Below are positions 3,093-46,921 of a stretch of DNA of 64,000 bases, piece after piece. The notes beneath the pieces were generated by a model that saw only the letters and a program-made list of their open reading frames with translations, searched no databases and was not told the DNA's origin. Source of the stretch: a virus (taxonomy: Duplodnaviria > Heunggongvirae > Uroviricota > Caudoviricetes); IMG/VR virus record IMGVR_UViG_3300020577_007897; one strand, given 5' to 3'. The translations under genes were made by a program, and so were the position numbers. Position 1 is the first letter of the stretch. Each line of letters starts with the position of its first letter.

Positions 3093-3167
3093 GCTGAGTT
3101 GGTATATTGGCTGTTGCCTTAGCCTTCCAAGCTAAAGAAATGGGTTCGATTCCCATACTCAGCTCCA
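3093..3167 (+). tRNA. tRNA-Gly (anticodon UCC), CCA encoded
   Basis: Acceptor GCTGAGT/ACTCAGC. Anticodon stem TTAGC/GCTAA, loop CTTCCAA. T-arm ATGGG-TTCGATT-CCCAT. Discriminator T then CCA. Confidence 0.8.
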
Positions 3168-4233: not shown

Positions 4234-4310
4234 AGGCCTATAGCATAAAGGTTAATGCCACCAGCTCATAACTGGTTTTTATCTCAGTTCAATTCTGAGT
4301 GGGCCTACCA
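4234..4310 (+). tRNA. tRNA-Met-like (anticodon CAT); could be initiator, elongator or Ile-lysidine
   Basis: Acceptor AGGCCTA/TGGGCCT (one G-U). D-arm GCAT-AAAGGTTA-ATGC. Anticodon stem ACCAG/CTGGT, loop CTCATAA. T-arm CTCAG-TTCAATT-CTGAG. CCA encoded. The 6-nt variable loop is unusual. Confidence 0.7.
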
Positions 4311-9185: not shown

Positions 9186-10226
9186 ATGTATGACTATCTC
9201 GTCTTTATTGGGCGATTCGCGCCCTACCATTCAGGCCACCATGCTGTGGTTTCTGAAGCTCTCAAAAGAACAAAGCATTTGATTATAGTGCTTGGCTCCG
9301 CAGGCCAACCTCGTTCTTTTAGAAATCCCCTCTTTACACACGAGCGCCGTGAAATTATACTTTCTACTCTTTTGGCAGAAGGTGTTGATACCGAGCGTGT
9401 CACGTTTGTAGAGGCTATTGATTATCCCTATAATGATGAAAAGTGGATTACCCAGATTCAATCTCTGGTTAATAGCGTTGTCTTTCGTAAGTGGCAAGCC
9501 GGCCCTGTAAAGGTTGGTCTTGTTGGATTTGCAAAGGACCATTCTTCTTACTACCTCAAGATGTTTCCTCAGTGGGATTCAGTTAACGTAGAAACGAAAA
9601 ATAAGTGCAACGCTACTGACTATCGTAATCGCTTCTTCCGTAAGTTTACTCCTGATGAATTGGTTGATCACTTCTATATCAATCCAGTTCATAAGCAGAA
9701 CGTTCTTTACTACTGCCAAAAGGCTGGTAAAGAAGGAATCTTCGAAGAAGCAGAGTATATCCACAATTACAAAATGTCATGGCAAGGCTCTCCTTTTCCT
9801 CCCACGTTTGTTTGCGTAGATGCTCTTGTTACACAATCAGGACATATTCTGGTTGTTGAGCGAGGACATTCTCCCGGCAAAGGCCAGCTAGCTCTTCCTG
9901 GCGGTTTCGTTAATCAGAACGAACGACTGAAAGATGCTGCTGTACGTGAGCTATATGAAGAAACTGGACTTAAGGTTCCCAAGCCTGTTCTATATGGATC
10001 AATTTCAGACTCTAAGGTGTTTGATGATCCACATCGCTCACAGCGCGGAAGAACTATTACACAGTGTTTCCACTTCCAGCTTGCTGATCAAGAAAAGCTA
10101 CCCAAAGTAAAGGGTGGTGATGATGCTGCTCATGCTTTCTGGATGCCTTTTGCTGATTATGTAAAGGGTCGTGAGAAATTCTTTGAAGATCATTTCGCCA
10201 TGATCGAAACAATGCTGGGATTCTAA
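9186..10226 (+). CDS. natV: bifunctional NMN adenylyltransferase / Nudix hydrolase (NadM-Nudix, KVP40 NatV-like)
   Basis: N-terminal nucleotidyltransferase HxGH motif (FAPYHSGHH). C-terminal Nudix box [23 protein letters not shown]. Confidence 0.85.
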
Positions 10227-10237
10227 GGAGAACTACA

Positions 10238-11590
10238 ATGTCTAATATTATTCTAAACACCGACTCTTACAAGATGTCGCACTTCTTGCAGTACCCTCCG
10301 CAGACTGCATTTGTGAATAGCTATATTGCTTCCCGCGGAGTAACTGATGTAACGATTGCAGGTAAGAATCCAGAGATCGTTAATCTGGGTCTGCAGATGT
10401 TCATTATGGAGTATCTGCAGAAACCTATTACAATTGATGATATTGAAGAGGCTCGTTATATTGCTCAGCTTCATGGCGTACCTTTTAATGAAGAAGGATG
10501 GATGAAGGTTCTGAAAAAGCATTCTGGTTTTCTTCCTATCGAGATTGAAGGTCTGCCTGAAGGTACTCCTGTACCTGTTGGAACTACTCAGTATCAGGTT
10601 CGTAATACTGATCCTGAACTTCCTTGGGTAACGAGCTATATTGAGACTGCATTGCTTCGCGCAATTTGGTATCCTTCTACTGTTGCTACTATCTCACGAG
10701 AGATTAAGAAGGACATCAAGTACTGGCTCGATAAGACTGCAATGGATACAGCTTCTGTTCTTCCGTTCCGTCTGCATGACTTCGGAGCTCGTGGTGTTAG
10801 CTCCAAAGAAGGTGCTGGTATTGGTGGTCTAGCTCATATTGTTAACTTTAGCGGTACTGATACTATCGAAGCCCTGCAGTATGCATTCCATTACTACTAT
10901 GCACATGGCATGCCTGCATTCTCTATTCCAGCTGCTGAACACAGCACTATTACAAGCTGGGGTAAGGAAAACGAGGCTGAAGCATATCGCAATATGCTAA
11001 AGCAGTTTGGTAAACCTGGTGCTCTAGTAGCTGTTGTATCTGACTCTTATGACATCTATAATGCTTGTGAAAAGATTTGGGGTGAGACTCTACATGATGA
11101 AGTACTTCGTACTGGCGCTACAGTTGTTGTTCGACCTGACTCTGGTTACCCTGTTACCGTTGTCAATAGGGTACTCGATATCCTGGGTGATAAGTTCGGT
11201 TATGTAGAGAATCAGAAGGGCTATAAGGTACTTAACTCTGCTGTTCGCGTTATTCAGGGTGATGGTGTAGACAAGCAATCTATTACTGGTATCCTAATGA
11301 CAATGGCAGAGAACGGTTGGTCTGCTGAGAACGTTGCATTTGGTATGGGTGGTGCTCTTCTGCAGAAGGTAAATCGCGATACATTCAAGTATGCCATGAA
11401 GGCTTCTGCTATCAAGAAGCAGAATGATATTTACTGGTCCGATGTATACAAGCAACCAGTAACTGATTCTATGAAGGTATCAAAGCGCGGTATTCAAACG
11501 GACGAAAGGTTCTTGACTTTCTATGAGAATGGTAATACAATGAATATTATTAGCTTTGATCAAGTTCGAGCGAATGCAGAAGTCAAATAA
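10238..11590 (+). CDS. nadV: nicotinamide phosphoribosyltransferase (NAMPT/NadV)
   Basis: 450 aa starting MSNIILNTDSYKMSHFLQYPP. Type II PRTase motifs are conserved throughout. Confidence 0.85.
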   Translation: MSNIILNTDSYKMSHFLQYPPQTAFVNSYIASRGVTDVTIAGKNPEIVNLGLQMFIMEYLQKPITIDDIEEARYIAQLHGVPFNEEGWMKVLKKHSGFLPIEIEGLPEGTPVPVGTTQYQVRNTDPELPWVTSYIETALLRAIWYPSTVATISREIKKDIKYWLDKTAMDTASVLPFRLHDFGARGVSSKEGAGIGGLAHIVNFSGTDTIEALQYAFHYYYAHGMPAFSIPAAEHSTITSWGKENEAEAYRNMLKQFGKPGALVAVVSDSYDIYNACEKIWGETLHDEVLRTGATVVVRPDSGYPVTVVNRVLDILGDKFGYVENQKGYKVLNSAVRVIQGDGVDKQSITGILMTMAENGWSAENVAFGMGGALLQKVNRDTFKYAMKASAIKKQNDIYWSDVYKQPVTDSMKVSKRGIQTDERFLTFYENGNTMNIISFDQVRANAEVK

Positions 11591-25221: not shown

Positions 25222-25267
25222 ATGGTTGTGAGAGATGCACAACGTTGTTTTGTTATGAAAAGGAAAT

Positions 25268-26317
25268 GTGAATATGGCTGCTACTGCTAAGAAGACTGCT
25301 AAGAACGTTAAGTCTGTTAAGAAGGCTTCTAACGTCGTTTCTATTAAGAAGGGTAAGATTAAGGTCGAAACGGAAAAGGTTAAGGCTGAGCCTGCTCGTC
25401 TTATCTCCCCTTGGGGTCGTAACTCCACCGAATTTAAGACTGATATGTCTGTAAAGGATATGTTGGTTGAATCTGGTCTTGATTGGACTGTTGAACGTTA
25501 TCCTCTTCAGGTTAATGTCGATGGTGAAATGATTAATGTTGGCGAAGATGCTCTTCTTCGTTCTGACAATAACCATATTCTTTCGACTGCTTCCACTCAG
25601 TGGAACCATTTCGATAACGAAGTGGCTGTAGAGTTTATGGATAAGTTTGCTCGTTCTATTGGTAATCGAGTTAACTTCCTTGGCCAGGTTCGTGGTGGTC
25701 GATTGGTATTCGGCCTTTCGGAGCTTAAGGGCGAGAAGTTCGCTCTCTTTAAGGGTAAGGACGAAGTTTCGTCTTATCTGCTTCTTTCGAATCCTCATGT
25801 GTATGGTCAGAAGTTCGACGTTCGCTTTACTGCAATTCGCGATCGTTGTTACAATACTCTTACTCAGGGTCTTTCGCGAAACGGTGATCTCGAAGTTCGT
25901 ATTTCGCATCGCAAGAAGTTTGATCCGGCTTTTGCCGAGCAGGCGCTTATTGCTGCTCGCGGTAATATGAAGAAGTATCAGGAGATGTCGGAGCTTCTCG
26001 CTTCGAAGCGTTTCTCCGAAGATACTCTGATTGAGTATTACCATACCGTTTTCCCGACTCTTTCGAATAAGAAGGGTCGCGATCCCAAGAAGCTTTCGCG
26101 TCCTGGTCAGATGGCTTTTGACGTACTGGAAACTCAGCCTGGTGCTGAGCTTGGTGAGGGTACTTGGTGGCAGGTTTATAACTCTGCTACTTATGCTCTT
26201 GACCATCTTGTGGGTCGTTCGCCTGATAATCGTCTTTACGCTTCTTGGTACGGTTTGAACCGTGCGAAGAAGAATCAGGCTCTGCGTATCGCTTGTGAGT
26301 TTGCACAAGCTGCGTAA
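25268..26317 (+). CDS. Lys-rich N-terminus protein, possibly DUF932-like (phage/plasmid-like protein); strongly codon-biased
   Basis: 349-aa ORF with RBS AAAGGAAA. Third-position choice is extremely biased (GCT/CGT/AAG/GGT/TCT), which creates the mirror ORF on the opposite strand. Confidence 0.6.
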   Translation: MNMAATAKKTAKNVKSVKKASNVVSIKKGKIKVETEKVKAEPARLISPWGRNSTEFKTDMSVKDMLVESGLDWTVERYPLQVNVDGEMINVGEDALLRSDNNHILSTASTQWNHFDNEVAVEFMDKFARSIGNRVNFLGQVRGGRLVFGLSELKGEKFALFKGKDEVSSYLLLSNPHVYGQKFDVRFTAIRDRCYNTLTQGLSRNGDLEVRISHRKKFDPAFAEQALIAARGNMKKYQEMSELLASKRFSEDTLIEYYHTVFPTLSNKKGRDPKKLSRPGQMAFDVLETQPGAELGEGTWWQVYNSATYALDHLVGRSPDNRLYASWYGLNRAKKNQALRIACEFAQAA

Positions 26318-32596: not shown

Positions 32597-33050
32597 GAAA
32601 AAGGCTATTCTGGTTGATGTGGATGGTACTCTACTCAACAACAAGCACCGCGAAGGATTCCTGAGAAGGCATCCTAAGCAGTGGAAGGATTACAACTACA
32701 ATATGAAGTTTGATACTCCTTACGATGATATCGTTTGGCTTGTTAAGACCCTTCATAAGGCTGGTTGTACAATTCTAATCTGTACTGCACGTCAAGATCA
32801 AGCCGATATTATCGAGACTACTCGTTGGCAGCTTGATGAAGTTTGTGGTCTAGAGGGCGTATACGAAAAGATCTACCATCGTGCTGCTGAAGACTATCGC
32901 GATGATACGGTTGTTAAGATCGATCTACTTGAGCAAATCAAGCTAGATGGATATGAGCCGTACATGGTACTTGATGATCGTAATAAGGTAGTTAAGGCTT
33001 GGCGCGATGCTGGCCTTCGTTGTCTTCAAGTTCAGGATGGAGATTTCTAA
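32586..33050 (+). CDS. HAD-superfamily phosphatase (T4 Pnk phosphatase-domain-like)
   Basis: ILVDVDGTLLNN (DxDGT motif I) ... LDDRNKVVKAW. Confidence 0.65.
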   Translation: MMNKKKAILVDVDGTLLNNKHREGFLRRHPKQWKDYNYNMKFDTPYDDIVWLVKTLHKAGCTILICTARQDQADIIETTRWQLDEVCGLEGVYEKIYHRAAEDYRDDTVVKIDLLEQIKLDGYEPYMVLDDRNKVVKAWRDAGLRCLQVQDGDF

Positions 33051-33229
33051 TGTCTAAAGAATATTGGGCAGGGTTGTTTATTATGGGCGCAGGCGGTGCT
33101 TTAATCGGAGTTGCCCTTAAACCAGACGCTTGGGCGGCCATTTCCGCCATACTTGGTTTGTTTGTAATTGATGTTGGCCATGCCATCTATAAGGATGCAA
33201 AGGACAAAGCGAAAAATGACCCTGCTTGA
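33050..33229 (+). CDS. small membrane protein
   Basis: ATG 33050 overlaps TAA. Sequence MSKEYWAGLFIMGAGGALIGV. Confidence 0.35.
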   Translation: MSKEYWAGLFIMGAGGALIGVALKPDAWAAISAILGLFVIDVGHAIYKDAKDKAKNDPA

Positions 33230-33443
33230 TTTCTTTGGTAAAGTAATGGCAACAGGTGGCTTTTTTACTGGTGTTTCATTCTTTCTTCTGCTAATCTTTG
33301 GCCAAGCTATTGTTGAAGCAGGTGATAAGAATGAAACAAACAAGAAGATTTCTAGCCAAGTTCTCGGCGGGCTTTGCTTTGCTTTAATTGGCGGTCTTGC
33401 ATTAATTACTGTAGGTAGTTTAGGATATATTTGGGCACGATAA
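33216..33443 (+). CDS. small membrane protein
   Basis: 75 aa with two TM helices. Confidence 0.35.
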   Translation: MTLLDFFGKVMATGGFFTGVSFFLLLIFGQAIVEAGDKNETNKKISSQVLGGLCFALIGGLALITVGSLGYIWAR

Positions 33444-33943
33444 TGAAAAAGACTCCTGTGTTTATTATGCTGTGTGGCTTGCCTGGTACTGGTAAGTCTA
33501 CCTGGGTCAATACCGAAGCAACTCTTCTGGACGATGAATTTGAGAACACCTATATCGTTTCATCAGACAATTTGCTGGAAATGGTTGGTCGTGAATACGA
33601 CCTGTCGTATAATCAGCTGTTTGGTGATGTGAGCTATATGGCTATTGAGCGCATGATGTATAAGGTGGCCAATAAGCTGTTTGAGCGACGCAATAACGTT
33701 ATTTGGGACCAAACTAACCTTTCGGTCAAGTCTCGTAAGCGCAAGATTGATATGGTTCCAGAAGGATACTATAAAGTGGCTGTAGTGTTCAACGAGCCTG
33801 CTGACCATATGGAGCGTCTCAATAAGCGCGCTCTTGCTGAAGAGAAAGTCATTCCAGAGTTTGTTATTGATAATATGAAGCGTATGTTCGTCAAGCCTAC
33901 GAAAGAAGAAGGCTTTGATGACGTGATTGAAGTGACAATGTGA
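33431..33943 (+). CDS. P-loop kinase (polynucleotide kinase-like)
   Basis: Walker A CGLPGTGKSTW, cf. T4 Pnk GCPGSGKST. 170 aa. Confidence 0.6.
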   Translation: MGTIMKKTPVFIMLCGLPGTGKSTWVNTEATLLDDEFENTYIVSSDNLLEMVGREYDLSYNQLFGDVSYMAIERMMYKVANKLFERRNNVIWDQTNLSVKSRKRKIDMVPEGYYKVAVVFNEPADHMERLNKRALAEEKVIPEFVIDNMKRMFVKPTKEEGFDDVIEVTM

Positions 33944-34383
33944 TGAAAATCTTTAGCTGGCATTGGTGGCTTGGTCTTCCAGAGCCAGTAAAGGAAGACA
34001 AGCAAGCTAAAATCTATGAATATTGGCGCAAGAAAGAACATCAGAAAGACGAGCAAGAGAAGACCAAAATGACCAAAAAGAAAGTTGCAACTCATAAGAT
34101 TGATGATATTTTTAAGTTCTCTGTCAAAGAGATTGATGGAAAGGTCAGAGTTGAGATTGCATCCAACATTCATGACGATCGATACGGTTATATGGAAGCA
34201 TCTTCTTGGTACTTCAACACTAGCGCCGTGCAAACTGTGATTGATAAGCTAGTCGCATATCGCGATATGGCTATCGAGCTTGAGAAGAGGCTAACACCTC
34301 CTGAGCCAGAACCTACCAAGCCCGATAAGCCTGATTTTAAACTTCTCAATTTTGAACAAAAAGAGCCTGACAATGTTTCTTGA
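33940..34383 (+). CDS. hypothetical protein
   Basis: 147 aa. Confidence 0.45.
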   Translation: MMKIFSWHWWLGLPEPVKEDKQAKIYEYWRKKEHQKDEQEKTKMTKKKVATHKIDDIFKFSVKEIDGKVRVEIASNIHDDRYGYMEASSWYFNTSAVQTVIDKLVAYRDMAIELEKRLTPPEPEPTKPDKPDFKLLNFEQKEPDNVS

Positions 34384-34711
34384 TTGGTGGATGATTGTAG
34401 TTGTTTGGATTGTAGCTTTCTTTTGGGGCGAATGGCGCTATAAGAAAGGCATGGTTGATGGCTGCGAATTGGGTCTCGATCATGCTGAAAGAGAGCGTAT
34501 GGAAGATAACGGCCGTCGAATGGAAGCTTTCATTGAAGAGCTGAAGTTGCAGCCAGATGAACTGCAAAAGCAATCCATTGCTCTATATCTATACACTGCA
34601 AAACTTAAAGTTCTTGGTCTTCTGAAGTTTCATTCTGACGGAACTATGGAAGGCTATAACGGCAAGCGCGTTAAGCTTGTTGAAACTGTAGAAGGTCAGA
34701 AAGATAAATAA
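34352..34711 (+). CDS. membrane-anchored hypothetical protein
   Basis: N-terminal TM FLDWWMIVVVWIVAFFW. 119 aa. Confidence 0.45.
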   Translation: MNKKSLTMFLDWWMIVVVWIVAFFWGEWRYKKGMVDGCELGLDHAERERMEDNGRRMEAFIEELKLQPDELQKQSIALYLYTAKLKVLGLLKFHSDGTMEGYNGKRVKLVETVEGQKDK

Positions 34712-35080
34712 AGTTTGTATCGTTGAAGTTAACAACGACTGGATGTGACTGCGGGGCAGTACCGCACAGGTCCACCAGAAGTATATTACTTGAGTGATAA
34801 GTTGGTGAAAGAGTCCAACGTAAAAGCCCCTCTTAATCGAACGAGTATGATAGCCCAGGCTAGATGGCTAAGAAAGTTTGAAGTAATATATTTCTGATGG
34901 GCCTGAAATAGGATCGAGCAACAGAATCCGAGTTGATGGAGATACCCCGAGCAAGCTGGGTCAACGCAAGACAAAAGTAAATGCAAACGATAATGTTGCA
35001 TCTGAAGAAGGCACTGGCGGATTCCGCCTAGCGGCCTAAACTTCTGGGTATGGGCACCGCCTCGAAACAGAATGGGCCCA
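34712..35080 (+). ncRNA. ssrA: candidate two-piece (circularly permuted) tmRNA gene: acceptor piece ~34712-34777, intervening segment, coding piece ~34899-35080
   Basis: T-arm-like hairpin TGCGG-GGCAGTA-CCGCA, then CAGGTCC-A-CCA ending at 34777. Downstream GGGCCTG(34899-34905) pairs with CAGGTCC in 7 bp (one G-U). It is followed by AAATAGGATCGAG (cf. E. coli AUUCUGGAUUCGAC). The tag ORF GCA AAC GAT AAT ... CTA GCG GCC TAA (34983-35039) encodes ANDNVASEEGTGGFRLAA-stop. The 420-bp gap has no credible protein ORF. Confidence 0.55.
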
Positions 35081-35084
35081 CTCA

Positions 35085-35108
35085 CCCCTTTACTGGGGTG
35101 TTTTTATT
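35085..35108 (+). terminator. rho-independent terminator after the tmRNA-like locus
   Basis: CCCC-tttact-GGGG followed by TGTTTTTATTT. Confidence 0.5.
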
Positions 35109-35130
35109 TCAACAACAATGATGAGGCATA

Positions 35131-35574
35131 ATGTCATCAAAGAAGAAGAATCCAGTCGTCTATGAGCGATCACAGACGATAAATAATACTGATTTGCTTA
35201 TCTATGTTGAACAACTTGGACCTGTGAGTGAAGATATTGATCGAAAGGAATTTATCTTTTCGATAGATGGAACCACTAAACGAGAAGACCACGACCTCAC
35301 AATTAGCGAGATGTACGAAATTCTCACTACTGTGATCGAAAGTCTTTACGAGTACATTGATAAGCACATCGAGAATATTCTAGAGACCTCCAAAAAGTGT
35401 CTTATAGAATTTGAAGCTGACGGAAAGACTCAGGAAGAAAGAGACCTTAAGAATAAGTGTTACTCAGTTTTCTTGAAGCGACTGCAAAAGAAGATCGACG
35501 ACCAGTTTGATAATATCTCTGTAGAGTATTCAAGAGAAAAATATCTTCACTGGTTAAAGTTTTCAACGACCTAA
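35131..35574 (+). CDS. hypothetical protein
   Basis: RBS TGAGG before the ATG. 147 aa. Confidence 0.5.
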   Translation: MSSKKKNPVVYERSQTINNTDLLIYVEQLGPVSEDIDRKEFIFSIDGTTKREDHDLTISEMYEILTTVIESLYEYIDKHIENILETSKKCLIEFEADGKTQEERDLKNKCYSVFLKRLQKKIDDQFDNISVEYSREKYLHWLKFSTT

Positions 35575-35594
35575 TTGGAGGCATATGAAAGAAA

Positions 35595-36062
35595 TTGCTC
35601 AAGCACCAACACGTAATCATCCGCGCCGAGGTAAACCAACCACCTGGTGCTAACGATATCGATTCAACTCAACTGTGGTTCAAGAACCTTATTGAAGCGA
35701 TCGGTATGAAGATTCTTTTAGGACCATTTGTTGTATATTGCGACATGCCTGGTAATCGTGGGATGACCGGCATTAGTGCTATTGAGACAAGTTCTATTAC
35801 ATTGCATGCCTGGGACGAAGATTCGCCCGGTGTTGTCCAGCTAGATGTTTATACTTGCGCTGACCTCGATTTGAGTATAGTATTAGATCATCTGAAGGTG
35901 TTTGCACCAACAGAAGTAGAATATCACTTTATTGATCGAGATGCAGACAAGTGGGAGGACTGTTGTGGTTCTGTTACTTGCGGTTGTGCAAACACTCCTT
36001 CCAAGATCAAGGTGATTGATCAGGGAAAGGTTTCATATATGCAAGCCCAAGCAGCGGAATAA
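35595..36062 (+). CDS. speD: S-adenosylmethionine decarboxylase proenzyme (class 1a, SpeH/SpeD-like), probable TTG start
   Basis: ETSSITLHAWDED...LDVYTCA aligns with [23 protein letters not shown] (the self-processing Ser). HQHVIIRAE resembles GRHLVAEF. No in-frame ATG exists; TTG 35595 lies 14 nt after GGAGG. Confidence 0.7.
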   Translation: MLKHQHVIIRAEVNQPPGANDIDSTQLWFKNLIEAIGMKILLGPFVVYCDMPGNRGMTGISAIETSSITLHAWDEDSPGVVQLDVYTCADLDLSIVLDHLKVFAPTEVEYHFIDRDADKWEDCCGSVTCGCANTPSKIKVIDQGKVSYMQAQAAE

Positions 36063-36301
36063 TGGCTGAACTTATTTACATCGAGAATTTGGTTAACATT
36101 TCTCAAAAGATCGAAAAGCTAGTTGAAAAGCATGGCATTGATTATATCGATGCCTGCTTGCTTTATTGTGAAAAGAATGGTGTTGAAATTGAACAGCTAG
36201 CCGATATTATTAAAAAGAATCCAAACATCAAAGGTAAGTTGCAAGGCGAAGCTGAAGCTCTTAACTTTATGAAGGAGAAAAGAACAAGGATAGTGCTATG
36301 A
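36062..36301 (+). CDS. hypothetical protein
   Basis: 79 aa. Confidence 0.4.
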   Translation: MAELIYIENLVNISQKIEKLVEKHGIDYIDACLLYCEKNGVEIEQLADIIKKNPNIKGKLQGEAEALNFMKEKRTRIVL

Positions 36302-36513
36302 AAGATGTTATTGTGGAGATGCGCTGCCCGGCTGTTCAAATGAACTCGCGCATTACAATTACTCTAGATACTATGGAGCCAGCAGATGTAAAGGTATTGC
36401 TTGATCATCTGCAAGGCGAAATAAACTACCTGCTTAATGTGTATAAGCATGGTCAAAACTGGCCTCAGAAGCTTGAAGCAGGCGAAATTAAACCAGAGGA
36501 GATTTACGTATGA
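36298..36513 (+). CDS. hypothetical protein
   Basis: 71 aa. Confidence 0.4.
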   Translation: MKDVIVEMRCPAVQMNSRITITLDTMEPADVKVLLDHLQGEINYLLNVYKHGQNWPQKLEAGEIKPEEIYV

Positions 36514-36692
36514 ACGAGAAAGACAATAAGGACATTACTGATAAGTCACTTGATTGGGCTAAGCAGAATCCTACATTGACTGGCGCGGCAGCCGGTGCAG
36601 TTGTAGGTTCAGTTGTTCCTGTTATTGGAACAGCAGCTGGCGCAATTGTAGGCGCTATTATCGGACATTTGTCAGGTAAAGACGGAAAGTAA
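36510..36692 (+). CDS. glycine-zipper membrane protein
   Basis: GAAAGAVVGSVVPVIGTAAGAIVGAIIGHLSG. Confidence 0.45.
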   Translation: MNEKDNKDITDKSLDWAKQNPTLTGAAAGAVVGSVVPVIGTAAGAIVGAIIGHLSGKDGK

Positions 36693-36696
36693 TGCA

Positions 36697-36722
36697 GGGC
36701 CCGGCTGCGGGCCCTTTTGTTA
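36697..36722 (+). terminator. strong rho-independent terminator
   Basis: GGGCCCG-GCTG-CGGGCCC followed by TTTTGTTATT. Confidence 0.7.
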
Positions 36723-36735
36723 TTAGGAGATTAAT

Positions 36736-36927
36736 ATGACTGTAAGTGAACTTATTATTGAACTAGCACGTGTTGAAGATCAGAATGCTAAGATTGTATT
36801 CTATTACAATGATTTGGATGGTACAGAATGTGCCTTTAATGTAGTAGGGCAGGCAAAGCCTGACGCAGAAGAAGTGCAGTGGATTAAAGATGAATTGAAG
36901 AACGTAGCAGTCTTTGTATTGAGTTAA
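36736..36927 (+). CDS. hypothetical protein
   Basis: RBS AGGAG before the ATG. 63 aa. Confidence 0.45.
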   Translation: MTVSELIIELARVEDQNAKIVFYYNDLDGTECAFNVVGQAKPDAEEVQWIKDELKNVAVFVLS

Positions 36928-36929
36928 TC

Positions 36930-37796
36930 ATGACATTTCGACCTATCCTAGCTGAAACTCTGGACGATCCTTCCGTAATTAATTATCCAGTAGTTGCATC
37001 TCCCAAGCTCGACGGTATTCGCTGTCTTATTATTGATGGCGTAGCTGTCTCGCGATCTCTTAAGCCAATTCCCAACAAGTTTATCCAGCGAATTCTATCT
37101 GGCATGCCCGCCTTTGACGGTGAGCTAATGCTTGATGGTGCTAACTTTGACTCTGTTCAAAGTGCTGTAATGAGTGAAGATGGAGAACCAGCTTTTACGT
37201 ATTGGGTATTTGATATCCATAACCTAGGTGCTGGTTTTCTAGAACGTTATAACATGCTTGTCCGTACTGTCAGAGAACTTAACAACCCATATGTCAAAGT
37301 TTTAGAGCATGCGATTGCTGATTCTGTATTTGGATTAGCCAATTACGTTGCTAAGAATGCTGGTGATGGGTTTGAAGGTACTATGGTTCGCGATCCAAAT
37401 GGTCGCTATAAGCATGGTAGATCTACTCTCAAGGAAGCACTACTTCTCAAGATTAAAGCTTGGTATGATCTAGAAGGCAAGGTAATTGGCTTCAAAGAAC
37501 AGCTTAAAAATACAAATGAGAAAGAGAAGGACAAGAGAGGTCTTTCTAAGCGATCGAGCAAGAAAGAAGGTAAGGTGCCTGCTGATACGCTCGGTTCGTT
37601 AGTATGTGTAATGGAAAATGGTAATGAGTTCGATGTGGGCTCTGGACTTACAGCTGCACAAAGAAAGCATATTTGGAAGAATCAAGACAAGTTCCTTGGT
37701 AAATATGTGACTGTAACGTACCAAGAACTTACAAAGGACGGAGTACCTAGATTCCCTGTATATAAGGGATTTAGAGATGAGAAAGATATGTCATGA
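36930..37796 (+). CDS. ATP-dependent DNA (or RNA) ligase, minimal Chlorella-virus-like size
   Basis: Motif I SPKLDGIR, motif III AFDGELMLDG, motif IV FEGTMVRD, motif V LLLKIKAW. 288 aa. Confidence 0.85.
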   Translation: MTFRPILAETLDDPSVINYPVVASPKLDGIRCLIIDGVAVSRSLKPIPNKFIQRILSGMPAFDGELMLDGANFDSVQSAVMSEDGEPAFTYWVFDIHNLGAGFLERYNMLVRTVRELNNPYVKVLEHAIADSVFGLANYVAKNAGDGFEGTMVRDPNGRYKHGRSTLKEALLLKIKAWYDLEGKVIGFKEQLKNTNEKEKDKRGLSKRSSKKEGKVPADTLGSLVCVMENGNEFDVGSGLTAAQRKHIWKNQDKFLGKYVTVTYQELTKDGVPRFPVYKGFRDEKDMS

Positions 37797-38773: not shown

Positions 38774-39670
38774 ATGGCTAATACATCATTTGCACAACTT
38801 AAGAAGTCCCGCCAGGCACAGCTTGATAAGCTAACCGAAGCAATTAACGCTCAGAGTGCCAAAGCAAATCCCAAAGACGATTCTGATATGTACTGGAAGC
38901 CAACTGTAGACAAGGCTGGTAACGGCATGGCTACGATTCGTTTTCTTCCTGCTCCTATGGGTGAAGATCTTCCATTTGTTCGCGTATTCTCTCATGCATT
39001 CCAGGGCCCAACTGGCTCATGGTACATTAATAACTCCCTAACCACTATCGGTCTTAAGGACCCTGTTGGTGAGTTGAATGCAAAGCTGTGGAATAGCGGC
39101 GTTGAGTCTGATAAGGAAATTGCTCGTAAGCAGAAGCGTACTCTTAAGTACTATGCAAACGTATACATCGAAAAGGATTCTGGCAATCCTGAAAACGAAG
39201 GTAAGGTTAAGATCTTTACTTTTGGTAAGAAGATTTTCGATAAGCTTAATGAGGCTATGAACCCTCAGTTTGAGGACGAGCAGCCTATGAATCCATTTGA
39301 TCTATGGAGCGGTGCATCGTTTAAGCTCAAGATTCGTGAGGTAGAAGGCTACCGTAACTATGACAAGTCTGAGTTTAACTCTCCTGCTCCGTTGTTTGAA
39401 GACGAAGATAAGATGGAAGCTGTCTGGAAGCAGTGTCATTCACTCCAGCAGTTTGTTGATCCTAAGAACTTTAAGACTTGGGATGAATTGAAGAGTAAGC
39501 TTGATAGCGTATTGGGGCTTGATGCTCCAGTTAAGCGCAAGGCAGTAGAAGAGGACGATGAGTCTCCTTTTATTGATACTCCAAAGGCAAAGTCTAAGCC
39601 TTCTAAGGTTGAAGCAGCAGATGAATCAGATGATCTTGATGCATTGCTGTCTAAGCTAAATGCAGACTAA
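38774..39670 (+). CDS. 32: single-stranded DNA-binding protein gp32 homolog
   Basis: AGNGMATIRFLP (T4 AGNGQAVIRFLP); ENEGKVKIFTFGKKIFDK (T4 ENEGKVFKYRFGKKIWDK); acidic C-terminus. Confidence 0.9.
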   Translation: MANTSFAQLKKSRQAQLDKLTEAINAQSAKANPKDDSDMYWKPTVDKAGNGMATIRFLPAPMGEDLPFVRVFSHAFQGPTGSWYINNSLTTIGLKDPVGELNAKLWNSGVESDKEIARKQKRTLKYYANVYIEKDSGNPENEGKVKIFTFGKKIFDKLNEAMNPQFEDEQPMNPFDLWSGASFKLKIREVEGYRNYDKSEFNSPAPLFEDEDKMEAVWKQCHSLQQFVDPKNFKTWDELKSKLDSVLGLDAPVKRKAVEEDDESPFIDTPKAKSKPSKVEAADESDDLDALLSKLNAD

Positions 39671-46195: not shown

Positions 46196-46921
46196 TTAAT
46201 TGCCAGTAGGCGGAAGAACTTCTGCATCTCTCAATTGTTCTGCAGGTGTAGGTGGTTCATTTGATCTTATAGGGGCGGTAGGTTCAGGTGTATCAACACC
46301 TGTTGATTGAACAGCAGGTTGAACTGTTGTAGTTGTCCAATCAAGATATTCAAAGTTAACTTGAAACTTCGCGTTGCCGTTCTGTGAATATGACATAGGT
46401 ACATCAGCCACAACAGAAGGAAAAGCTTCTTTGATGTAATATACTTCAACAACATCTCCAGCTGTATTAAGCACAGCTATTGTAATATCAGTAGCATATT
46501 CAGACTTGTATTCTAGCTCATATTGACGACCGCCAAAGTTAGAAATCTGATTGATGCCACCGTTATACCAATCATGAGGCATAATGTACTGCATCCAGCT
46601 ATTAAAAAAGTGCATATAATCGCCATTAGCATCTGAATTAAACGTGCATTGAATAGGCATAAACACAGGCATATACGGGCGTTTCTCGTCTGGACCATAT
46701 GTCCAACGCTTTGCAACGTTGAGAGCTAACTGATAGCCAGGAATGTTAACACTATCAACCCAAAATTCCATATCTTTAGTAATATCAAACGCATCGGTCA
46801 TGCGCGTTGTACCTGTTACCATGCAGCGCGGCGGTACAAGAGTCATAACATATCTATTATCACGCATCATTCCGCCACGCTTGCCAATAGCGGATTTAAA
46901 TTCTTCGATGCTGAATGCCAT
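46196..46921 (-). CDS. tail-tube-family protein (gp54/gp48/gp19-like)
   Basis: The N-terminus MAFSIEEFKSAI resembles T4 gp54 MYSLEEFNNQAI. Confidence 0.45.
   Translation of the reverse strand: MAFSIEEFKSAIGKRGGMMRDNRYVMTLVPPRCMVTGTTRMTDAFDITKDMEFWVDSVNIPGYQLALNVAKRWTYGPDEKRPYMPVFMPIQCTFNSDANGDYMHFFNSWMQYIMPHDWYNGGINQISNFGGRQYELEYKSEYATDITIAVLNTAGDVVEVYYIKEAFPSVVADVPMSYSQNGNAKFQVNFEYLDWTTTTVQPAVQSTGVDTPEPTAPIRSNEPPTPAEQLRDAEVLPPTGN

Follow-up and report, generated by a model that had tools for sequence, protein, structure and literature searches.

We analyzed a 64,000-nucleotide (nt) stretch of viral DNA (hereafter, the window) from the IMG/VR record IMGVR_UViG_3300020577_007897 (Caudoviricetes), in which positions 34714-35110 of the plus strand very probably represent a functional, circularly permuted gene (ssrA) for an alphaproteobacterial-type transfer-messenger RNA (tmRNA) in the genome of a divergent T4-like myovirus. 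A preliminary description of this DNA had pointed to five tmRNA hallmarks in a gap between two genes, namely, a T-arm-like hairpin followed by an acceptor strand with CCA, a complementary acceptor strand downstream, a conserved stretch next to the latter, an ANDN...LAA tag frame, and a terminator. All five are present where it placed them, and the features of the locus are listed below.

34680-34685 and 34703-34710 (+): promoter-like region read from the sequence, TTGAAA and GATAAA(TA) separated by a 17-nt spacer
34714-34777 (+): acceptor piece, from the Rfam alignment and the consensus fold of 41 viral genes
34717-34721 (+): 5' strand of helix P2c, in the acceptor piece
34733-34734, 34739-34741 and 34744-34746 (+): strands of P2b, P2a' and P2a, respectively, in the acceptor piece
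34750-34766 (+): T-arm, TGCGG-GGCAGTA-CCGCA, with a loop (GGCAGUA) of the alpha type (GGCRGUA)
34767-34773 (+): 3' strand of the acceptor stem, CAGGTCC, followed by the discriminator A34774 and the encoded CCA (34775-34777)
34778-34898 (+): intervening segment of 121 nt, predicted to be removed on maturation
34778-34791/34881-34894 (+): closing stem of the intervening segment, an inverted repeat of 14 bp with one G-U pair
34895-34898 (+): unpaired leader UGAU, immediately 5' of G1
34899-34982 (+): 5' part of the coding piece, from the Rfam alignment and the consensus fold
34899-34905 (+): 5' strand of the acceptor stem, GGGCCTG (G1 is 34899, G3 is 34901)
34906-34918 (+): AAATAGGATCGAG, directly after the acceptor 5' strand
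34906-34917 (+): D-loop analogue AAAUAGGAUCGA
34918-34920, 34922-34924, 34931-34932 and 34941-34945 (+): 3' strands of P2
34946-34948/34958-34960 (+): first hairpin of PK1, from the covariance model and sequence comparison
Up to the resume codon at 34983 (+): A-rich run
34983-35039 (+): tag frame, by translation, with the resume codon GCA, the peptide ANDNVASEEGTGGFRLAA and the stop codon TAA (35037-35039)
35040-35082 (+): H-type pseudoknot that forms the 3' domain of the coding piece, aligned with high posterior probability to the 3' terminus of the alpha_tmRNA model
35046-35049/35059-35062 and 35051-35055/35076-35080 (+): stems A and B of the pseudoknot
35066-35072 (+): conserved AACAGAA in the pseudoknot loop
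35083-35110 (+): intrinsic terminator, CACCCC-TTTACT-GGGGTG (hairpin 35083-35100) with a T-tract, from a terminator scan

The assignment to permuted tmRNAs of the alpha type is supported by covariance models, structure and comparative evidence. A covariance-model search and a test of P2 pairing between the two pieces had both been proposed in the preliminary description, and both agree with its reading. When the whole window was scanned with Rfam cmscan at gathering thresholds, two models produced full-length matches at the locus, each with an E-value of about 1e-15: tmRNA_permuted (RF04321) at 34718-35039 (86.5 bits against a gathering score of 47, E=3.5e-15) and alpha_tmRNA (RF01849) at 34676-35082 (63.2 bits against 50, E=5.3e-15). 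The modest score of the latter (63 bits) is due to the outer P2 helices being shorter and AU-rich. Three independent sequencing runs agree on every base of the locus. Nucleotide searches with the locus recovered little: megablast against the phage collection gave no match, an exact 21-mer from the locus had no match in the JGI metagenomes, and the sole blastn match in the phage collection was a 55-nt segment of the Sinorhizobium phage Phosso, where the 3' domain is 83.6% identical. For comparison, we collected viral permuted tmRNA genes from IMG/VR using a 14-mer scan (at least 120 stretches) along with loci anchored on a neighboring gene; a structural filter then left at least 87 distinct genes of the alpha type. 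Apart from one relative from the same lineage (L214/L215, discussed below), the identity of the window gene to any other viral copy is only about 65-75%.

The two pieces are encoded in permuted order, with the CCA ending at 34777, G1 at 34899, and 121 nt between them. The acceptor stem consists of 7 bp (GGGCCUG/CAGGUCC), with a lone G-U pair, G34901-U34771, at position 3 (G3-U70), and this U-G pair is invariant in all 41 viral genes included in the consensus fold. G3-U70 is the alanine identity pair. The T-arm has a 5-bp stem, with all five pairs standard, and a 7-nt loop; together with the acceptor stem, it was recovered by an unconstrained two-strand minimum free energy fold. The consensus fold of 41 spliced viral sequences, which was built independently of Rfam, includes the acceptor stem, the T-arm and a three-part P2 helix, with abundant covariation. 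All but one of the 25 consensus pairs across the tRNA-like domain and P2 are present in the window sequence; within P2 (P2a, P2a', P2b and P2c), where co-variation across the 41 genes is strong, 12 of the 13 consensus pairs form, so that the pairing between the two pieces is borne out. The first hairpin of PK1 also co-varies with relatives (CCG/CGG versus CCC/GGG), and stem A of the 3' pseudoknot was found in the consensus fold of the viral genes.

The tag comprises 18 amino acids (aa), starts with ANDN, ends with LAA and is followed by an in-frame stop codon. Among 38 viral genes, the tag is 13-14 aa long in 33, and the RLAA ending is found in 7. In some viral permuted tmRNAs (L013, L028, L050, L076 and L110), the tags are very long, such as ANDNVSNVFSFVDFGSLKNYVNEDYALAA with 29 aa.

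Further comparative evidence comes from the relative L214/L215, which was reached via a homolog of the adjacent lineage-specific open reading frame (ORF; 86% protein identity). The relative contig has the matching gene order, with a gene-free gap at the matching place, and this gap scores 88.3 and 74.5 bits with the two Rfam models. The acceptor piece is identical in all 64 nt, with the identity starting abruptly at 34714, and so are the 84 nt of the coding piece up to the resume codon, for a total of 148/148 nt in the mature tRNA-like and P2 parts. By comparison, the five flanking protein genes are 65-91% identical, the intervening segments (121 versus 73 nt) 48%, and the upstream flanks 52%. 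Outside the invariant part, the changes preserve structure. In the pseudoknot, C35055-G35076 is replaced by U-A, a compensatory change, U35049-G35059 becomes U-A, and the substitution of U for A35056 gains a U-G pair; in the terminator, the differences are confined to the loop and the T-tract and leave the stem intact; the intervening segment of L214 retains a 12-bp stem despite its divergent sequence, three of the pairs having both bases replaced. The L214 tag, ANDNFASEVRLAA, consists of 13 aa compared to 18 aa in the window, and differs by a 15-nt indel that leaves the frame intact, two synonymous changes and one V-to-F replacement. The identity of the mature segments, together with the compensatory changes, implies that the RNA is under strong purifying selection, and the pattern of substitutions indicates that the constraint acts at the RNA level rather than at the protein level. 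Searches of IMG/VR with two other neighboring genes were less productive: orf147 yielded no relative, and the DNA ligase yielded two distant loci, both without a tmRNA.

The intervening segment shows a conserved architecture of its own. In the window, its closing stem and the acceptor stem jointly make up a 25-nt inverted repeat; the intervening segment alone folds with z=-2.8, and with the acceptor stem included, the z-score is -5.5, with none of 200 shuffled sequences folding as well. In nearly all of the viral genes (at least 87), the intervening segment, which ranges from 2 to 410 nt, opens with a stem arm right after the CCA and closes with the complementary arm, followed by a conserved TGAT in front of G1. 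In a set of 66 viral genes, the arms are 82% paired in register compared to 36-55% when shifted, with several pair types per position, and the TGAT leader is present in 49. We infer that the closing stem is a processing stem that brings together the CCA end and G1. Permuted transcripts are cut by tRNA-processing enzymes, and pre-tmRNA is processed by RNase P, which is why the cut at 34898/34899 would be attributed to this enzyme; that a further nuclease takes part, for example, RNase III with the ~24-bp helix as its substrate, is speculation.

A promoter upstream of the tmRNA is likely, judging from the motifs that precede it. The downstream motif, GATAAATA at 34703-34710, also fits the T4-type late box, [T/G]ATAAATA. 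In the OM43 phage Melnitz (see below), TTGACA and TATAAATA, separated by 17 nt, end 6 nt before the tmRNA, that is, at the corresponding relative position. Late expression is not claimed here because the motif is not enriched in the window (14 ATAAATA sites found against 20.6 expected) and the position of the box is not conserved in L214. Each of the 14 ATAAATA sites in the window has a T or a G immediately before it (their positions include 2968, 14971, 28761, 41163 on the minus strand, 48027, 53221 and 58793), and six of them are followed by an ORF start at a distance of 22-51 nt, gp6 and other baseplate genes being among these ORFs. The [T/G]ATAAATA sites located before ORFs are probably phage late promoters.

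Several observations weigh against the assignment of a functional tmRNA gene. The covariance scores are lower than those of the Melnitz and Phosso genes (about 113 bits). One P2 pair, A34734-A34931 in P2b, fails to form, and for the second stem of PK1, rival pairings (for example, 34722-34726 with 34961-34965) are indistinguishable, so that this stem is left unassigned. The conserved block starts at 34714, 4 nt after the promoter-like box, whereas in L214 the box lies 17 nt upstream of the block. A tblastn search for smpB with Escherichia coli SmpB, a weak test confined to the 64-kb window, gave no significant match. ARAGORN reports only a tRNA-Gly and a tRNA-Met elsewhere in the window and no tmRNA. 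Finally, the SmpB-proximal region has G34918 at a position where C is nearly invariant.

The last two points are connected. ARAGORN had been suggested as a check on the preliminary description, and as such it failed: the gene went undetected at default thresholds as well as with relaxed thresholds in both linear and circular mode. In silico shortening of the intervening segment, a GGGG start or a canonical T-loop left ARAGORN silent; replacement of G34918 with C alone was enough for it to call a permuted tmRNA, whose tag was exactly as predicted. The D-loop analogue matches GAAAUAGGAUCGAC except for the last base, where G34918 takes the place of the consensus C (GAG instead of GAC), and the gene is missed because this one base breaks a hard-coded motif. 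The consensus pair 34746/34918, which closes P2 beside the tRNA-like domain, is G-C in 81 of 85 viral loci; in the window, the partner base has changed as well, from the consensus G to U34746, and because of this second change the pair is retained as U34746-G34918. A pattern search for the GAG variant in 185,579 species-representative genomes produced six matches, none in a tRNA-like context, which apparently occurred by chance. Taken naively, the ARAGORN negative would have led to the rejection of a correct call. The two tRNA genes that ARAGORN does report are tRNA-Gly(TCC) at 3093-3167 and tRNA-Met(CAT) at 4234-4310, of which the Rfam gathering threshold recovers only the first.

The window belongs to a T4-like myovirus, as indicated by the gp6, gp7 and gp8 baseplate wedge proteins. 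The gp6 protein is only about 35% identical to its best matches, from Stenotrophomonas phage DLP_6, Caulobacter phage Cr30, the Sinorhizobium phage phiM12 group and cyanomyoviruses, and the phage is distant from cultured phages. The gene order is tmRNA, orf147, AdoMetDC, gp33, ..., ligase, gp59, gp32, with the following landmarks:

36062-36301: gp33-type late-transcription coactivator (PF16805), downstream of the tmRNA
38774-39670: gp32, with gp59 located between gp33 and gp32

The AdoMetDC-like gene (PF02675, 35595-36062) has its closest cultured homologs in Pelagibacter phages with 40-55-kb genomes (about 44-53% identity). Among 80 IMG/VR loci (L122-L201), 16 have a permuted tmRNA directly beside an AdoMetDC homolog, on either strand; in locus L209, the AdoMetDC-like gene was called at 118 aa rather than 155.

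The preliminary description considered a tmRNA unexpected in a T4-like genome, which does not hold. Two-piece tmRNA genes are already known in marine T4-like phages, and the present locus adds a further member. Buchholz et al. (2022, PMC9004378) described a two-piece ssrA in Melnitz, a T4-like myophage of OM43 (Methylophilales), and, among 47 contigs of Melnitz-like phages or pelagimyophages, permuted tmRNAs in 17. They found a tmRNA in 402 of 18,146 phage genomes, with ARAGORN calling 53 two-piece forms, 50 of which are marine or aquatic, and considered the tmRNA 'common but not defining' in related phage groups (PMC9004378). Phages account for 79 sequences in a 2025 tmRNA database, which also contains 11,946 permuted forms (PMC11915505). 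The suggestion that the alpha-type tmRNA hints at the host range is weakened by the same phage: Melnitz carries an alpha-type tmRNA and infects a gammaproteobacterium (PMC9004378), which makes this RNA type unsafe for host inference.

The Melnitz ssrA (MZ577097, 45984-46436; Kyanoviridae) is the closest parallel. It is likewise a permuted alpha-type gene of a T4-like myovirus that matches both Rfam models, is preceded by a -35-like hexamer, 17 nt and a [T/G]ATAAATA box just before the RNA, has an intervening segment with a closing stem and a TGAT leader (L213, 11069-11218), and encodes an ANDN...LAA-type tag. Both genes lie upstream of gp33-gp59-gp32; the Melnitz order is tmRNA, gp33, gp59, ..., gp32, whereas in the window the tmRNA is separated from gp33 by orf147 and AdoMetDC, two genes not present at this place in Melnitz. 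There are other differences. A blastn search at E<=0.01 makes no link between the two genes; the D-loop analogue of the window gene ends in GAG rather than GAC, and its tag is 18 aa long; and Melnitz and the pelagimyophages are absent from the 25 listed best matches of the window gp6. Furthermore, a glutamine riboswitch (RF01739, 52.8 bits) directly follows the Melnitz tmRNA, whereas in the window the intrinsic terminator occupies this place, and an Rfam search of 33000-37000 gave no glutamine riboswitch at E<=1. The tmRNA and the riboswitch rarely co-occur (PMC9004378). The Melnitz riboswitch (L213, 11399-11447; MZ577097, ~46,398-46,446) has been said to 'control' the tmRNA, but it is immediately 3' of the latter, the alpha model ending at 11391, and more plausibly regulates whatever lies downstream, or read-through, rather than the tmRNA.

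Outside this phage group, the window gene resembles the tmRNAs of alphaproteobacteria (RF01849) in the order of acceptor piece, CCA, intervening segment and coding piece, in the T-loop GGCAGUA, the GAAAUAGGAUCGA motif, the ANDN...LAA tag and the 3' AACAGAA, as well as in presumed maturation by tRNA-processing enzymes; it differs in belonging to a virulent phage rather than a chromosome and in the G34918/U34746 variant. The tmRNA of Caulobacter crescentus is reportedly the two-piece prototype (work of Keiler, Shapiro and Williams in 2000). We also found an unannotated permuted tmRNA in Phosso, a Sinorhizobium jumbo phage with a 469-kb genome (PV764938, about 349,553-350,242; L001, 910-1555). 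It is of the alpha type (113 and 108 bits) and encodes an ANDN...LAA tag, ANDNVSTKVALAA; it differs in the 410-nt intervening segment, whose end stem was not detected by the pairing criterion, and in the soil rhizobium host. The consensus GAC is present in Phosso, and ARAGORN misses the gene nonetheless. Mycobacteriophages (the Bxz1 group), whose one-piece tmRNAs were known by 2014 at the latest, and Bacillus phage G similarly carry a component of trans-translation, with no phage smpB reported; their tmRNAs are non-permuted, and these are unrelated phages of Gram-positive or actinobacterial hosts (PMC4131195). Phage DS6A differs again in having a gene for the tRNA-like domain only (PMC4131195). 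The role presumed for all of these is supporting or manipulating host ribosome rescue.

Taken together, these data show the identity of the gene, the integrity of its structure, purifying selection on the RNA and a conserved genome position. How the RNA would be transcribed, processed, charged and used for tagging, its dependence on SmpB and what the phage would gain are inferred, as follows, from what is known of the tmRNA family. A single precursor would start at the promoter just upstream and end at the intrinsic terminator; within it, the closing stem of the 121-nt segment would join the acceptor stem in one helix of about 24 bp. Host RNase P would cut 5' of G34899, and the 3' end would be trimmed to the encoded CCA at 34777, with the loss of the intervening segment. 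Of the two resulting RNAs, the acceptor piece would measure about 61-64 nt and the coding piece about 184-210 nt; the acceptor stem and the three-part P2 helix would keep them joined. The RNA would be charged by the host alanyl-tRNA synthetase via G3-U70 and would enter stalled ribosomes with host SmpB and EF-Tu; translation would resume at GCA (34983), append ANDNVASEEGTGGFRLAA to the nascent chain and terminate at UAA, and the LAA end would direct the product to host proteases. The role is thus most likely canonical trans-translation that relies on host SmpB, alanyl-tRNA synthetase, EF-Tu and proteases, and the phage may gain extra capacity for ribosome rescue while host and phage mRNAs are cut during infection.

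The alternative that survives best, although we consider it unlikely, is that the phage tmRNA interferes with trans-translation in the host, by titrating SmpB or outcompeting the host tmRNA, with a phage-specified tag that has another fate. The tag evolves fast (13 versus 18 aa, V/F) on an otherwise frozen RNA, and the SmpB-proximal G34918 is specific to the lineage, no real tmRNA context having turned up among the six matches in 185,579 genomes. There is also precedent: DS6A has the tRNA-like domain alone, and a similar molecule inhibits tmRNA, perhaps via SmpB titration (PMC4131195); Buchholz et al. likewise propose selective tagging of host proteins (PMC9004378). A pure decoy, however, needs neither a tag nor a 3' pseudoknot, whereas here the gene is complete, the tag has the canonical LAA, and both the tag and the pseudoknot are maintained, including a compensatory change; beyond that, sequence cannot separate interference from supplementation. 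A related and equally doubtful idea is that of a tuned effector, in which G34918/U34746 and the fast-evolving tag redirect the tagged proteins or their fate; separately from this, the stem and UGAU might mark an unrecognized processing pathway common to all permuted tmRNAs. In that case, an RNase III-type enzyme could act on the roughly 24-bp helix in which the CCA end is buried.

A passenger gene, acquired from an alphaproteobacterium and now decaying or neutral without serving the phage, is strongly disfavored as an explanation and has very little chance of being correct. The covariance scores below those of other phage copies, the rejection by ARAGORN and the apparent dispensability of the tmRNA in related phages, where it is not a defining gene (PMC9004378), would all fit decay. 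A passenger would not be expected to show 148/148 identical mature nucleotides next to genes with 65-91% and an intervening segment with 48% identity, compensatory substitutions in two separate helices, a deviating base, G34918, that is itself compensated, and a preserved tag frame and terminator stem.

Protein coding, with the RNA likeness being secondary, is still less credible. The gap had been described as containing a single ORF, an antisense artifact; it contains two, an antisense ORF of 99 aa (34786-35085) and a plus-strand ORF of 50 aa (34745-34897), and the judgment stands in that neither looks like a coding sequence. Both are open in L214 (78 aa and 34 aa), and both indels (15 and 48 nt) are multiples of three, which explains why the antisense frame remains open there; a purine-rich stretch precedes the antisense GTG. 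Against coding, 8 of the 10 substitutions outside the indel alter an amino acid in the antisense frame, the parts of both ORFs within the intervening segment have no protein similarity to L214, the central 84 nt lack any synonymous change, unlike a sequence under coding constraint, the plus-strand ORF would start inside the T-arm, and gene callers placed no coding sequence in the gap in any of five contigs.

A tmRNA fragment serving as an attP site for integration into host ssrA can practically be dismissed: integration often targets tmRNA genes, and ssrA fragments are frequently found at prophage ends (PMC4383910), but an attP normally copies the 3' end only, whereas both pieces are complete here and come with a promoter-like region and a terminator, the phage is of the virulent T4-like type with gp33/gp59/gp32 and baseplate modules, and no integrase was found among the genes examined, which cover part of the 64-kb window.

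Several other features of the window deserve mention. A PNKP-type phosphatase (PF25109, 32586-33050) and an AAA_33 kinase (33431-33943) are encoded by separate ORFs just upstream of the tmRNA, and a ligase is encoded at 36930-37796, 2 kb downstream of it; in L214 (4534-6793), an ATP-dependent ligase lies between the PNKP-type phosphatase and the AAA_33 kinase. The phosphatase, kinase and ligase look like an end-healing and sealing cassette beside a ribosome-rescue RNA. An NAD salvage pair at 9186-11590 consists of an NMNAT/Nudix fusion (phrog_395) and a nicotinamide phosphoribosyltransferase that is 58% identical to a Mesorhizobium phage homolog. At 25253-26308 on the minus strand and 25268-26317 on the plus strand, two ORFs, each of about 350 aa, overlap almost fully.

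Points of annotation, biology and mechanism made here for the permuted tmRNA leave the general understanding of phage tmRNAs unchanged; the useful additions are the ARAGORN blind spot, a clean selection signature and the conserved stem in the intervening segment. Surveys of phage tmRNAs based on ARAGORN undercount, and covariance models are preferable. The relative with 86% identity provides unusually clean evidence of strong selection on a complete two-piece tmRNA in a virulent T4-like phage, and the conserved stem with the UGAU leader offers a testable handle on how precursors of permuted tmRNAs are cut. The shared place beside gp33-gp59-gp32 in the window phage and in Melnitz suggests either long-term retention of the tmRNA or repeated capture at a hotspot in marine and aquatic T4-like phages.

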